A stretch of DNA of 64,000 bases from positions 4,484 to 68,483 of the forward strand of contig JBGPKK010000002.1 of the NCBI GenBank assembly GCA_041485905.1, written 5' to 3'. This DNA is from Vicinamibacteria bacterium (GTDB lineage: Bacteria; Acidobacteriota; Vicinamibacteria; Vicinamibacterales; CAVVIG01). Positions 32,184 to 62,850 of this stretch are shown piece by piece. A program made the translations under genes and the position numbers. Position 1 is the stretch's first letter. Every line of letters starts with the position of its first letter. Under the pieces are notes generated by a model. It saw only the letters and a program-made list of their open reading frames with translations, ran no database searches and was not told the origin of the DNA.

Positions 32184-32213
32184 TTCACTTCTGCCTCTTA
32201 CCTTTTAACTTCC
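32175..32213. repeat. hairpin between convergent genes
   Basis: GGAAGTTA (32175-82) pairs with TAACTTCC (32206-13) around a 23-nt loop. The flanks are built from AAGTT(G/A)G units. Confidence 0.5.
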
Positions 32214-32341
32214 TGCCGATCCACGCGCACGCTCTTCAACTCGATCCTCGCGACAAGCGCCTCCCCGTTCCGGGGCGACGCTTCAATCGCCTCGACAACC
32301 GCGAGACCATCCACGACGCGCCCAAACGCCGTGTACCGACC
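32198..32341 (-). pseudogene. out-of-frame fossil of the C-terminus of a second cyclophilin domain
   Basis: An alternative frame downstream of the PPIase reads GRYTAFGRVVDGLAVVEAIEASPRNGEALVARIELKSVRVD. This is paralogous to YTVFGDVTDGMDVVQKISQTPVDDNGLATARVEIKRITIRD at the end of the intact domain. Confidence 0.5.
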
Positions 32342-33011
32342 ACGCCGCCAGTTCCTCCACCGTCTCCGTTGAAAACGGCTCCGGCGTCGGCGGTGGTGTA
32401 TCTCTAATCGTGATGCGCTTGATCTCGACGCGCGCGGTCGCGAGGCCGTTGTCGTCAACCGGCGTTTGGGAAATCTTCTGCACGACGTCCATGCCGTCCG
32501 TCACATCCCCGAACACCGTGTACTGGCCGTCCAGCGCCGGCTGATCGATAACGACGATGAAGAACTGAGCGCCGGCGCTGTCGGGCCGGCCAGGCACCAG
32601 CACGGCTGCCACCGAGCCGGCCGTCATCTTCGGCGCTCGCGCTTCCGCTTTCACCATGTTCAGCCCGCCGGTGCCGTACAACGCGCGCTTGGACGGATCT
32701 GTCGTCAGCGGATCGCCGCCCTGCACCATCCCGAGCTTCACCATCCGATGAAAACTCGTCCCGTCGTACGCGCCGGCCTGCGCCTGCTTCGTGAAGCACG
32801 CGGCATGGTTCGGGGCGGTCTCCGACCGAAGATCGATGATGAACCTGCCGGCCGACGTATCGACGACGGCCTGTTTCGGCGGAGTTTGAGCGTGCAATAA
32901 CGCCGGGCCTGATAAGGCCCGGCCTACGTACGCAGGGCGGACCCTATTGGGTCCGCCGATGGCGACAGCCGCGGCGAGCGCGAGCGCGAATAGCGAAATG
33001 GCGCCCTTCAT
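32283..33011 (-). CDS. cyclophilin-type peptidyl-prolyl cis-trans isomerase (secreted)
   Basis: ATG at 33011 (MKGAISLFALALAAA), ATGA overlap with the pgsA stop. Cyclophilin motifs FHRMV, GGDP and AGAQFFI. The tail after PFSTETVEELAAW looks like out-of-frame read-through. Confidence 0.85.
   Translation of the reverse strand: MKGAISLFALALAAAVAIGGPNRVRPAYVGRALSGPALLHAQTPPKQAVVDTSAGRFIIDLRSETAPNHAACFTKQAQAGAYDGTSFHRMVKLGMVQGGDPLTTDPSKRALYGTGGLNMVKAEARAPKMTAGSVAAVLVPGRPDSAGAQFFIVVIDQPALDGQYTVFGDVTDGMDVVQKISQTPVDDNGLATARVEIKRITIRDTPPPTPEPFSTETVEELAAWSVHGVWARRGWSRGCRGD
32903..32957. repeat. composite REP-like element (two hairpins around CTACGTACG) inside the PPIase CDS
   Basis: CCGGGCCT-GATA-AGGCCCGG (32903-22), CCTACGTACGCA, then GGCGGACCC-TATT-GGGTCCGCC (32936-57). 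The second hairpin plus tail matches the element at 62771-62800 at 27/30 positions in the opposite orientation. Confidence 0.7.
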
Positions 33012-33574
33012 GCGCCCGCTCGTGCCTCGTCGATGATCCGTGCGGCGTGCCAGATGTAGTGCAGTCCCGAGACGAGCGTAATCCCGAGCGAGGCATACAC
33101 GAGCAGATCGACGATGACCGAATGAAATCGCAGGTAGTTGAACAGCATCGCCGCCACGGCCGTCACGATATACGTCGCCGTGGCCGCCTTGCCGAAGATC
33201 GTCGGCCGGAACGTCCGTGGACCGATCGCCAGATTGACGATCGTCACCGTCAGCACGATGCCAATGTCGCGCGTGATGATGAGGACGGTCAGCCAGACCG
33301 GCAGCCGATTGCTGAGCCCCAGCCCAGGCAGGGTCAACACGATGAAGGTCGTCACCAGAAGCAGCTTGTCGGCCATCGGATCGAGCCACGCACCCAGCTG
33401 CGTCTTCTGACCCGATCGGCGCGCGATGAGGCCGTCGAGGGCGTCGGTCGCTCCTGCCGTGGCGAACACGAACAACGCCCACCCGAGGTGCTCGTAGAGC
33501 ATCAGGATCAGGAAGGCGGGAATCAGGAGCATGCGCAGCAGCGTCAGCTGGTTGGCTGGCGTGAGCGCCGTCAT
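33008..33574 (-). CDS. pgsA: CDP-diacylglycerol--glycerol-3-phosphate 3-phosphatidyltransferase
   Basis: 188 aa and polytopic. CDP-alcohol phosphatidyltransferase motif DALDGLIARRSGQKTQLGAWLDPMADK. Confidence 0.85.
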   Translation of the reverse strand: MTALTPANQLTLLRMLLIPAFLILMLYEHLGWALFVFATAGATDALDGLIARRSGQKTQLGAWLDPMADKLLLVTTFIVLTLPGLGLSNRLPVWLTVLIITRDIGIVLTVTIVNLAIGPRTFRPTIFGKAATATYIVTAVAAMLFNYLRFHSVIVDLLVYASLGITLVSGLHYIWHAARIIDEARAGA

Positions 33575-49227: not shown

Positions 49228-49250
49228 GGATTGCTCCTCATCACTTCTTG

Positions 49251-49277
49251 GTCCGGCTAAAGCCGGACACTACGTAC
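49251..49277. repeat. REP-like element: hairpin plus CACTACGTAC tail
   Basis: GTCCGGCT-AA-AGCCGGAC followed by ACTACGTAC. The PQQ-4 stop codon (CTA at 49270-72) lies inside the tail. Matches the copy at 51161-51187 at 24/27 positions in the same orientation. Confidence 0.7.
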
Positions 49278-61165: not shown

Positions 61166-62755
61166 CTATCGCTCCTTACACACAAAGTTGGCGGCCTCGT
61201 TGATACTTCCGCTTCCTTTGTACGTCGCCACCTGCGGGTACGGGCAGAGCGGACGCGTGCGGTCGACTGCGCCGTCTTTCAGACGCGACGCGCTGATCTG
61301 CGCAGGCGCCTTTCCGTTTTCCACCCATTGGTCCAGCGCGCTCAGCATGTCAAACGTACTGGTCCCGTCGCCGCCGCCGCAGTGGCCCATGCCGGGCACC
61401 ATGAACAGACGGACAGAATCGCGCACGTCCTTCACCGTCGTCTTCGCCACCACGTTCTTGTAGTAGTCCACGATGTAGCCGGGAGGAATGCCGGGATCGC
61501 TCCATCCCGCGTACATGAGCAGCTTCCCGTGCCGCAGCAGCTTCGTCAGATCGGGATCGATCGCCGTCAGCTGGCCAACGACCTTGTCGGCTTTCGCGAT
61601 ATCACTGTCATAATTGAGCGTCAGTGGATCCCATTTCGGGTCCTTGAACACGACATACCGGTAGACATCAAGGGCGTAACCGACCGGTTGCGCGCCGGCC
61701 GATGCGGCCCAGCCCATCTCGCTTCCAGGGAACAGCGGCGAAAAGATCTGTTCGCCGGTGCGCGGGTTCCTGGCGCCGGCGTAAATCTTCCGCGCCGCTT
61801 CGACCTGCGAGGCGGTCAGGCAGCCCGGTCCGTCTGCATCCTTGCACTGCACGACTTTCGGATCGAACTTGCAGCGGGTCGGATCTTCGAGCACACCGTC
61901 CTTCACGCCGTCCAGAGCGTCGCAGGCGGCGACCGCCGCGTCGTGCAGCACGGTCAGCTTGTCCGGCGTGAGGTAGCCCGCCGCGTCTTTGTGGGTCGCC
62001 TGCCAGATCCAGATCTGCCCGGCAGACTGGCGCGATGCATAAATCGCCGGCGCGCCGGCGACGATGCCGTCGAAATCGTCGGGGAAGCGCTGTGCGGCGG
62101 TCAGCGCCTGCCGGCCGCCCGTCGAGCAGCCATTGAAGTAGGACGCCTTCGGACCGTTGCCGTAGAACGCCGCCAGGATCGCTTTGCTCTTCACCGCCGT
62201 CTCGTGAACCGCCCGGTCGGCGAAATCGGTCAGCCGCTCGGGATGATCGAGCATGAAACTGCCGCTGCCGCCCTCATGGCCCGTGTCGGTCGTGGCCGCC
62301 GCATACCCGCTGCGAAGCGCCGCGGCGAGACCGGCGGGAGCGATCGCTCCGGCAAATCCGCCGTTGCCGGGCAGGACGAACTTGCCGTTCCATCCCGAGG
62401 CGGGCATCCAGAGCTCGACCTTGATGTCGGAGTCGCTGCTCGGCTTCAGCGTCGCGCTGACGCGGCAGAAGGCCGGCAGATCGGCGAACTGCGCGCCGCG
62501 GCCGCCGGCTCTTCCCGGCGGTTGGCCGGCGCGGCCAGCCTCGGCCGGCGGTGCTGCGCCGCGCGCCCCACCGGCTCTCGCGGGCGGCGCGGGCGGAACA
62601 TACGCGCCGGCAGCCACCAACTGCGCGGATGTGATGGTCGCGTTCGGCAACGAGAGCATCGTCAGCTTCTCGCAGGTGGTCGCGGCGACGGCGGATTGAG
62701 CTCCGCCAACAAAAGACGCTGCCGCAAGCGTTGATAACCAGACGTTTCGGAACAT
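61166..62755 (-). CDS. tannase/feruloyl-esterase-family alpha/beta hydrolase (paralogue T2, motifs intact)
   Basis: 529 aa with a signal peptide. TTCEKLTMLSLPNAT. Nucleophile motif GCSTGG (62114-62131). PGMGHCGGG near the C-terminus. Confidence 0.85.
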   Translation of the reverse strand: MFRNVWLSTLAAASFVGGAQSAVAATTCEKLTMLSLPNATITSAQLVAAGAYVPPAPPARAGGARGAAPPAEAGRAGQPPGRAGGRGAQFADLPAFCRVSATLKPSSDSDIKVELWMPASGWNGKFVLPGNGGFAGAIAPAGLAAALRSGYAAATTDTGHEGGSGSFMLDHPERLTDFADRAVHETAVKSKAILAAFYGNGPKASYFNGCSTGGRQALTAAQRFPDDFDGIVAGAPAIYASRQSAGQIWIWQATHKDAAGYLTPDKLTVLHDAAVAACDALDGVKDGVLEDPTRCKFDPKVVQCKDADGPGCLTASQVEAARKIYAGARNPRTGEQIFSPLFPGSEMGWAASAGAQPVGYALDVYRYVVFKDPKWDPLTLNYDSDIAKADKVVGQLTAIDPDLTKLLRHGKLLMYAGWSDPGIPPGYIVDYYKNVVAKTTVKDVRDSVRLFMVPGMGHCGGGDGTSTFDMLSALDQWVENGKAPAQISASRLKDGAVDRTRPLCPYPQVATYKGSGSINEAANFVCKER

Positions 62756-62770
62756 ATCGCTCTCCTCGCC

Positions 62771-62850
62771 GGCGGACCCAGCAGGGTCCGCCCTACGTAC
62801 TTCTCCTCCTGTGCACCGAAGACGCCTGAGGTCGGCGACGCCGACCGAGG
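62771..62850. repeat. REP-like hairpin plus CTACGTAC tail, followed by a second GC hairpin
   Basis: GGCGGACCC-AGCA-GGGTCCGCC (62771-92) followed by CTACGTAC (62793-800). GGTCGGCG-A-CGCCGACC (62830-46) with partially pairing flanks. Confidence 0.7.

Follow-up and report, generated by a model that had tools for sequence, protein, structure and literature searches.

A GTAG-tagged REP doublet, probably translated and tolerated, in the signal peptide of a Vicinamibacterales cyclophilin

Introduction

REPs that carry a GTAG tag, the REPtrons that RAYT genes form with such repeats, and intragenic REPs that lie in frame, N-terminal ones included, have been described (Di Nocera, De Gregorio & Rocco 2013, PMC3733652). 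The same paper warned that the true start codon may lie downstream of a REP found at a predicted N-terminus, which would make many such REPs extragenic. REP doublets that form one long hairpin are known as REPINs (Bertels & Rainey 2011, PMC3116915), and palindromic mobile repeats in frame in open genes are represented by the Rickettsia palindromic elements (RPEs; Ogata et al. 2000, as cited in PMC3733652).

Like the GTAG REPs of RAYT systems (Nunvar et al. 2010; Bertels & Rainey 2011; PMC3733652), the element described here is built on a G+C-rich hairpin of 22 nt that bears a GTAG/CTAC tag, is present in many copies as a species-specific expansion, lies mostly between genes and near their 3′ ends, forms head-to-head dimers, and has a Y1 transposase gene between repeats; in both, a minority of copies is in frame in genes, encoding ∼10–30 residues and in many cases N-terminal (PMC3733652). 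It differs from them in its host, an uncultured member of the Vicinamibacterales (Acidobacteriota) outside the coverage of PMC3733652; in lying inside a signal peptide, where an ATGA overlap and the need for that signal argue that the N-terminal insert is translated; and in its two arms, whose stems are unlike and which form a hairpin each. As in REPINs, inverted REPs at fixed short spacing recur as one unit (five 56-nt doublets here), but under the strict definition of one long hairpin the doublet falls outside that class, its GGCGGACCC and GCCGGGCC arms being unpaired with each other. The likeness to RPEs is one of behavior only, in that palindromic mobile repeats lie in frame, the genes stay open, and surface or linker peptides are added; the host is an acidobacterium rather than Rickettsia, and the repeat is a GTAG REP. 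RPE-1 is longer (∼100–150 bp), and we know of no GTAG or RAYT association reported for it. A search of the literature for signal-peptide REPs found no dedicated paper, a result that is not proof of absence. The kind of element and its mechanism are already known; what is added here is mainly a documented signal-peptide hotspot and its likely cause.

Results

The window, the whole stretch of 64,000 nt that was analyzed, belongs to a genome (G000) assembled as 305 contigs (5.08 Mb, 64.7% G+C). Read directly on the minus strand, positions 32957 to 32902 are GGCGGACCCAATAGGGTCCGCC-CTGCGTACGTAG-GCCGGGCCTTATCAGGCCCGGC, that is, two hairpins with perfect stems of 8 to 9 bp and loops of 4 to 6 nt, joined by a tag linker (Table 1). 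The earlier note had recognized a composite hairpin element at 32903–32957, a description that stands except for its length of 55 nt, which is one base short. The linker consensus in the repeat family is CTAC-GTAC-GTAG, and the sole departure here is an A to G change in the tag of hairpin 1. If the conserved C at 32958, which precedes all five doublet copies, is included, the unit measures 57 nt, equal to 19 codons; the insertion itself may thus be 56 or 57 nt long. Both hairpins form in the predicted RNA fold of the region (−80.1 kcal/mol, z = −4.2), and the minimum-free-energy and centroid folds each place them as separate structures whose arms are mutually noncomplementary. The hairpin pattern matched twice in the window, versus 0.00 matches expected (100 shuffles). 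A single REP of the same family, oppositely oriented, reads GGCGGACCCAGCAGGGTCCGCCCTACGTAC at 62771–62800 on the plus strand and, as had been noted earlier, shares 27 of 30 bases with hairpin 1 and its tail; it occupies the 159-nt spacer between two divergent genes (61166–62755, minus; 62915 onward, plus), both of which encode signal-peptide proteins. Rfam and terminator/promoter scans of window positions 32700–33200 returned no match, so that neither an RNA element already described nor an intrinsic terminator has support.

Table 1. Positions of the repeat elements and host-gene features. Unprefixed positions refer to the window; prefixed positions are contigs of the source genome (G000).
Feature	Position	Strand	Details
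Cyclophilin-type PPIase CDS	32286..33011	minus	242 aa; stop 32283-32285
pgsA-like CDP-alcohol phosphatidyltransferase gene	33008..33574	minus	upstream of PPIase; TGA stop 33010-33008
Signal-peptide n- and h-regions	32961..33011	minus	MKGAISLFALALAAAVA, codons 1-17; possible AVA↓ cleavage motif at end
REP doublet	32902..32957	minus	56 nt; in-frame translation GGPNRVRPAYVGRALSGP(A)
REP hairpin 1	32936..32957	minus	GGCGGACCC-AATA-GGGTCCGCC; perfect 9-bp stem
Tag linker	32924..32935	minus	CTGC-GTAC-GTAG
REP hairpin 2, GTAG-tagged	32902..32923	minus	GCCGGGCC-TTATCA-GGCCCGGC; stem variant with 16 copies
Displaced original c-region LLHAQ	32886..32900	minus	directly before mature N-terminus TPPKQAVVD
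Deletion junction and remnant of cyclophilin domain 2	32198..32345	minus	junction ∼32340, GTAC microhomology
Single REP, same family	62770..62800	plus	GGCGGACCC-AGCA-GGGTCCGCC-CTACGTAC; starts 16 nt upstream of ATG of minus-strand gene
56-nt doublet copy	C25:21347		98% identity
56-nt doublet copy	C10:42004		96% identity
56-nt doublet copy	C11:43646		96% identity
56-nt doublet copy	C207:5805		95% identity
REPtron (locus L024)	C13:46538-47228		doublets GCCGGACCC..GGGTCCGGC-CTACGTACGGTACGTrG-GGCGGACCTTATGAGGTCCGCC flank Y1/RAYT-type ORF
In-frame REPs in eight Pfam-confirmed genes	C7:33381, C15:4633, C21:36263, C80:10592, C207:944, C207:5749, C192:3165, C49:11780		

The hairpin of the window belongs to a family that is abundant in the source genome, where the pattern GGCGGACCY-N4-RGGTCCGCC has 55 exact copies on many contigs and the same pattern written backwards, used as a control, has none. 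In 60 further genomes from the same bacterial family the pattern occurs 0 to 6 times (0 in both same-genus genomes, 0–6 in the remaining 58), which indicates an expansion of the hairpin family in the G000 lineage. Six stem variants, each perfectly self-complementary (GGCGGACCT, GGCGGACCC, GCCGGACCC, GCCGGGCCT, GCCGGACCT, and GGCGGGCCT), together account for ∼110 hairpins and are connected by compensatory changes at three stem positions; the wider REP family in this genome comprises ∼110–140 copies, most of which carry CTAC(GTAC) or GTAG tags. The 56-nt doublet itself is present at four further places, at 95 to 98% identity. A Y1_Tnp ORF (C13:46636–47076) matched PF01797 with 38.8 bits (cut-off 23) and contains an HLH motif and an RYVVTNPVRA tyrosine motif; doublets of the family lie on both sides of it, 60 to 120 nt from its ends, as in a classic REPtron. 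Relatives have homologues of this transposase in a patchy distribution, none of them more than 49% identical to it, and each is flanked by tagged hairpins of its own. The earlier claim of a dispersed repeat rather than protein-driven sequence, for which a lack of additional genomic copies had been named as the adverse outcome, is upheld by these exact-pattern copies, hairpins, and doublets and by the REP-flanked RAYT-type gene.

Placement of the repeats was surveyed at 130 REP loci with a crude codon-usage gene caller written for this analysis, on which the following counts rest: 91 were intergenic, 17 overlapped a gene end, and 22 were inside a called gene, while 68 loci of any class lay within 30 nt of a gene 3′ end. 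Some internal calls (e.g., C5:35086) appear spurious and were left out of the count. A first census, based on an open frame and coding potential with 150-nt flanks, had returned six internal cases and missed N-terminal ones, the cyclophilin included. At least 10 other genes of the source genome carry REPs in frame, and among these hosts Pfam confirmed two AMP-binding enzymes, an Lhr helicase, two Ser/Thr kinases, an ECF sigma factor, an Hsp70-family protein, and HemC; the repeat is located in the activation loop of one of the kinases and in the linker of the sigma factor. The doublet contains only one stop-free frame per orientation, as read directly from its sequence, and for that reason the PPIase gene and an AMP-binding gene on contig C207 read it identically. 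The doublet also lies in frame at the signal/mature junction (IGGPNRVRPTYRGDTYVGRALSGPA; C1:19366–19438) of an FG-GAP/ASPIC protein whose signal is of the twin-arginine type (RRDFLG), and there its linker is 15 nt longer than in the cyclophilin gene. Each REP/RAYT feature that could be looked for was thus found, namely, a palindromic stem-loop, a GTAG/CTAC tag, dispersed copies, a preference for gene 3′ ends, and a REP-flanked Y1 transposase gene, and on this sequence evidence the segment is a GTAG-tagged REP doublet. Mobilization by a RAYT is indicated indirectly, by near-identical copies at unrelated sites and by absence of the family from both same-genus genomes.

The host gene encodes a cyclophilin-type PPIase in which residues 50–201 matched PF00160 (Pro_isomerase) with 123.7 bits (cut-off 21.7). 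Its ATG (33011–33009) overlaps the TGA of the pgsA-like gene as ATGA, and the doublet begins ∼51 nt downstream of that stop codon. Counting from this ATG, the doublet encodes GGPNRVRPAYVGRALSGPA as codons 19–37, such that the N-terminus reads MKGAISLFALALAAAVA-I-GGPNRVRPAYVGRALSGPA-LLHAQ-TPPKQAVVD and the insert lies between the signal-peptide hydrophobic core and the old cleavage region LLHAQ↓TPPKQ. By hydropathy profile and the −3/−1 rule only, the signal is predicted to consist of MK, GAISLFALALAAAVAIG, and then AVA↓ or LHA↓, an arrangement also seen in orthologues; the nearest of them have (I/L)HAQ↓TPPK in common with the window's protein. Removal of 57 nt yields MKGAISLFALALAAAVA(I/M)LLHAQ↓TPPKQ, a normal signal peptide of 23 residues.

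This description presupposes that translation begins at the upstream ATG. An in-frame TTG at codon 39 (32897–32895) lies just past the element, and in light of the warning about predicted N-termini (Di Nocera et al. 2013, PMC3733652) it could be taken as the start, which would make the element an untranslated REP in a 5′-leader or intercistronic position and leave the signal peptide unused. We consider this very improbable. The ATGA overlap is kept at 10 of 17 syntenic loci in relatives and on two metagenome contigs (L030 and L031), the 17 codons past the ATG form a canonical n/h-region, and most full-length orthologues have a hydrophobic signal segment at the N-terminus. Initiation at the TTG, the only other in-frame start before the catalytic domain, would give a protein lacking a signal (MHAQTPPKQ), and no Shine–Dalgarno-like purine run precedes it. 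Because the overlap is conserved, orthologues have the signal segment, and the TTG lacks both a Shine–Dalgarno sequence and a signal, the upstream ATG is likely the translation start of the PPIase.

Comparison with relatives, a check that the earlier note had proposed, identifies the segment as an insertion. Matches to the orthologues in 40 related genomes (tblastn) begin after the insert, and its peptide (GGPxRVRP or GRALSGP) is absent both from the best matches in these genomes and from the 119 other database homologues, so that only the window's protein among 120 has it. Uninterrupted relatives have signal peptides of ∼20–28 residues ending AQA↓PPKQ or AQ↓TPPKQ, and the distance from the pgsA stop codon to the mature N-terminus is 44–71 nt in them versus 122 nt here.

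The same junction is occupied by a second REP family in relatives. The N-terminus was readable in 118 orthologues; in 26 of these (22%), one to six in-frame copies of SGFSRT/RLKPDTT peptides (VVSGFSRT, VRLKPDTT) immediately precede the mature N-terminus, and none occurs in the ∼340-residue mature part of any of the 118. The proteins closest to that of the window (P0008, P0002, P0004, and P0093) have this family at the same position, ahead of the HAQ↓TPPK that they share with it; one homologue carries the database name Vicinamibacterales. At the DNA level these peptides correspond to GTAG-tagged hairpins ((T/C)GTCCGGCTTCAGCCGGAC) in loci L012, L030, and L031. On metagenome contig L030, which also has one inverted copy, five tandem GTAG-tagged CGTCCGGC hairpins lie in frame in the cyclophilin signal peptide (1540–1745) with a period of ∼45 nt, and approximately three tandem in-frame hairpins of the same tagged kind (CGTCCGGC) do so on L031 (690–790), which suggests local array expansion in addition to new insertion. 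With 21 to 220 copies in the five genomes tested, the family is old and widespread. When REP presence was placed on a tree of the mature part, 19 changes were needed, at least eight of them forced by well-supported branches, versus 23.7 for shuffled labels; gains and losses at the junction are therefore frequent. Taken together, these comparisons indicate that the pgsA–cyclophilin junction is a recurrent REP landing site in the Vicinamibacterales, the likely reason being that it adjoins a stop codon and lies in signal-peptide coding sequence that would tolerate indels.

Several related arrangements were observed along the way. At L010 (G021:C174), GGCCCAAC-TAAA-GTTGGGCC followed by CTACGTAC splits the signal-peptide hydrophobic core, and REP-like material comes after the ATGA-coupled start; by exact pattern this hairpin is single-copy in its genome, and it was not counted as a proven REP. 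The pgsA–cyclophilin spacers of L015 and L017 (G022 and G020) contain, in place of REPs, heptamer-type arrays (gtttcgtgttttcgtgttttcgtgg, with inverted cacgaaagcac units). Within the window, a second-family REP (GTAG-TGTCCGGCTTTAGCCGGACC; 49250–49273, minus) overlaps a PQQ-dehydrogenase gene at its stop codon. In another genome (L027, G003:C19), GTAG-CGTCCGGCTTTAGCCGGACG hairpins flank a RAYT homologue, and the widespread TCCGGC REP family is therefore RAYT-associated, at least in that genome.

Recurrence at one junction raises the question of function. The inserted peptide might have been exapted as a c-region, spacer, or propeptide, or the mRNA hairpins, 51–107 nt into the ORF, might tune pgsA–PPIase coupling or mRNA stability. 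Such a role would be in keeping with the presence of REP arrays of one to six copies at exactly this junction in more than a fifth of orthologues, with REP peptides that fall within a signal peptide of normal length in some of them (e.g., P0041 and P0043), and with the strong local RNA fold. Set against this are the occupation of the site by different, unrelated REP families, a near-random scatter on the tree, which is compatible with recurrent neutral gain and loss, the fact that the closest relatives with an uninterrupted gene manage without an insert, the lack of any terminator-like site or Rfam family in the region scanned, and the presence of the same doublet in unrelated proteins. Exaptation is accordingly rated as highly improbable, and of the two words offered by the earlier note, "tolerated" and "exapted," the first is the better one and the second finds no support.

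The host gene has itself been altered at its other end. The window's protein has 242 residues, whereas the other 119 homologues have 340–422 residues and two cyclophilin domains each. Relative to the orthologues in both same-genus genomes, ∼112 codons of domain 2 are missing, out of frame; the last ∼40 residues of that domain survive in another frame (32216–32335), and the final 17 residues of the protein (SVHGVWARRGWSRGCRGD minus its first residue) are an out-of-frame tail of unrelated sequence. If the gene were a decaying pseudogene, the REP would lie in frame by luck, or would be too recent to have been purged, rather than being tolerated in a working protein. Besides the loss of most of domain 2 at a GTAC microhomology, the nonsense tail, and the greater length of all other homologues, a long terminal branch (0.22 versus a median of 0.06), a deviant amino acid composition, and a mildly raised dN on the G000 branch (∼1.2–1.9 times that of G001) could be read this way, and selection on the cyclophilin gene may be relaxed. 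Domain 1, however, is open along its whole length and departs at none of 75 columns conserved at ≥95% (mean of the others, 0.83), and its pairwise dN/dS against the G001 orthologue is 0.18, so that neither the conserved columns nor dN/dS supported decay of this domain. Single-domain periplasmic cyclophilins work in other bacteria, and in-frame REPs are likewise found in the 26 orthologues, which are of normal two-domain length. We regard decay as unlikely; were it true, it would weaken the statement that the insert is tolerated in a working protein and leave the identity of the element unaffected.

Discussion

The reading that we favor, and hold to be very probably correct, is that a young GTAG-tagged REP doublet of the RAYT-mobilized kind landed 3′ of the pgsA-like stop codon, is read through as part of the signal peptide, and is tolerated there. 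A non-autonomous doublet would have come to rest ∼51 nt past the pgsA-like stop. The usual place for a REP is directly 3′ of a stop codon, and where the stop overlaps the next start as ATGA, that landing place would fall inside signal-peptide coding sequence. Because the unit of 57 nt equals 19 codons and has one stop-free frame per orientation, a surviving copy would be translated through, here as IGGPNRVRPAYVGRALSGPA. Export would be expected to continue, because the hydrophobic core is untouched. Cleavage may have moved to AVA↓IGG, leaving a flexible N-terminal extension of ∼25 residues on the mature enzyme, or may have stayed at LHA↓Q. The insert would have no function of its own and would be tolerated rather than exapted. 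The earlier reading of the locus as a repeat inside a coding region holds overall; what it lacked was the loss of the second domain in the host protein and the repeated hits by another REP family in relatives.

A more far-reaching interpretation is that the junction is a targeted or selected landing pad, at which arrays of zero to six copies tune either translational coupling or signal-peptide length and cleavage. We judge this to be very unlikely; if true, it would amount to repeat-driven, fast-evolving control of the export of a periplasmic foldase.

For annotation, a REP at an N-terminus is no reason to choose a downstream start when the upstream one is backed by ATGA coupling and a signal peptide, and peptides such as VGRALSGP, GGPxRVRP, VVSGFSRT, and VRLKPDTT are better taken as footprints of mobile elements than as protein motifs. 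The locus provides a clean case from a little-studied phylum, in uncultured soil Vicinamibacterales (Acidobacteriota), that RAYT-type REPs can be read as protein and that a cleavable signal peptide may be a favored and repeatedly used place for them. It also offers a simple cause for the signal-peptide hotspot, in that the site adjoins an overlapping upstream stop codon.
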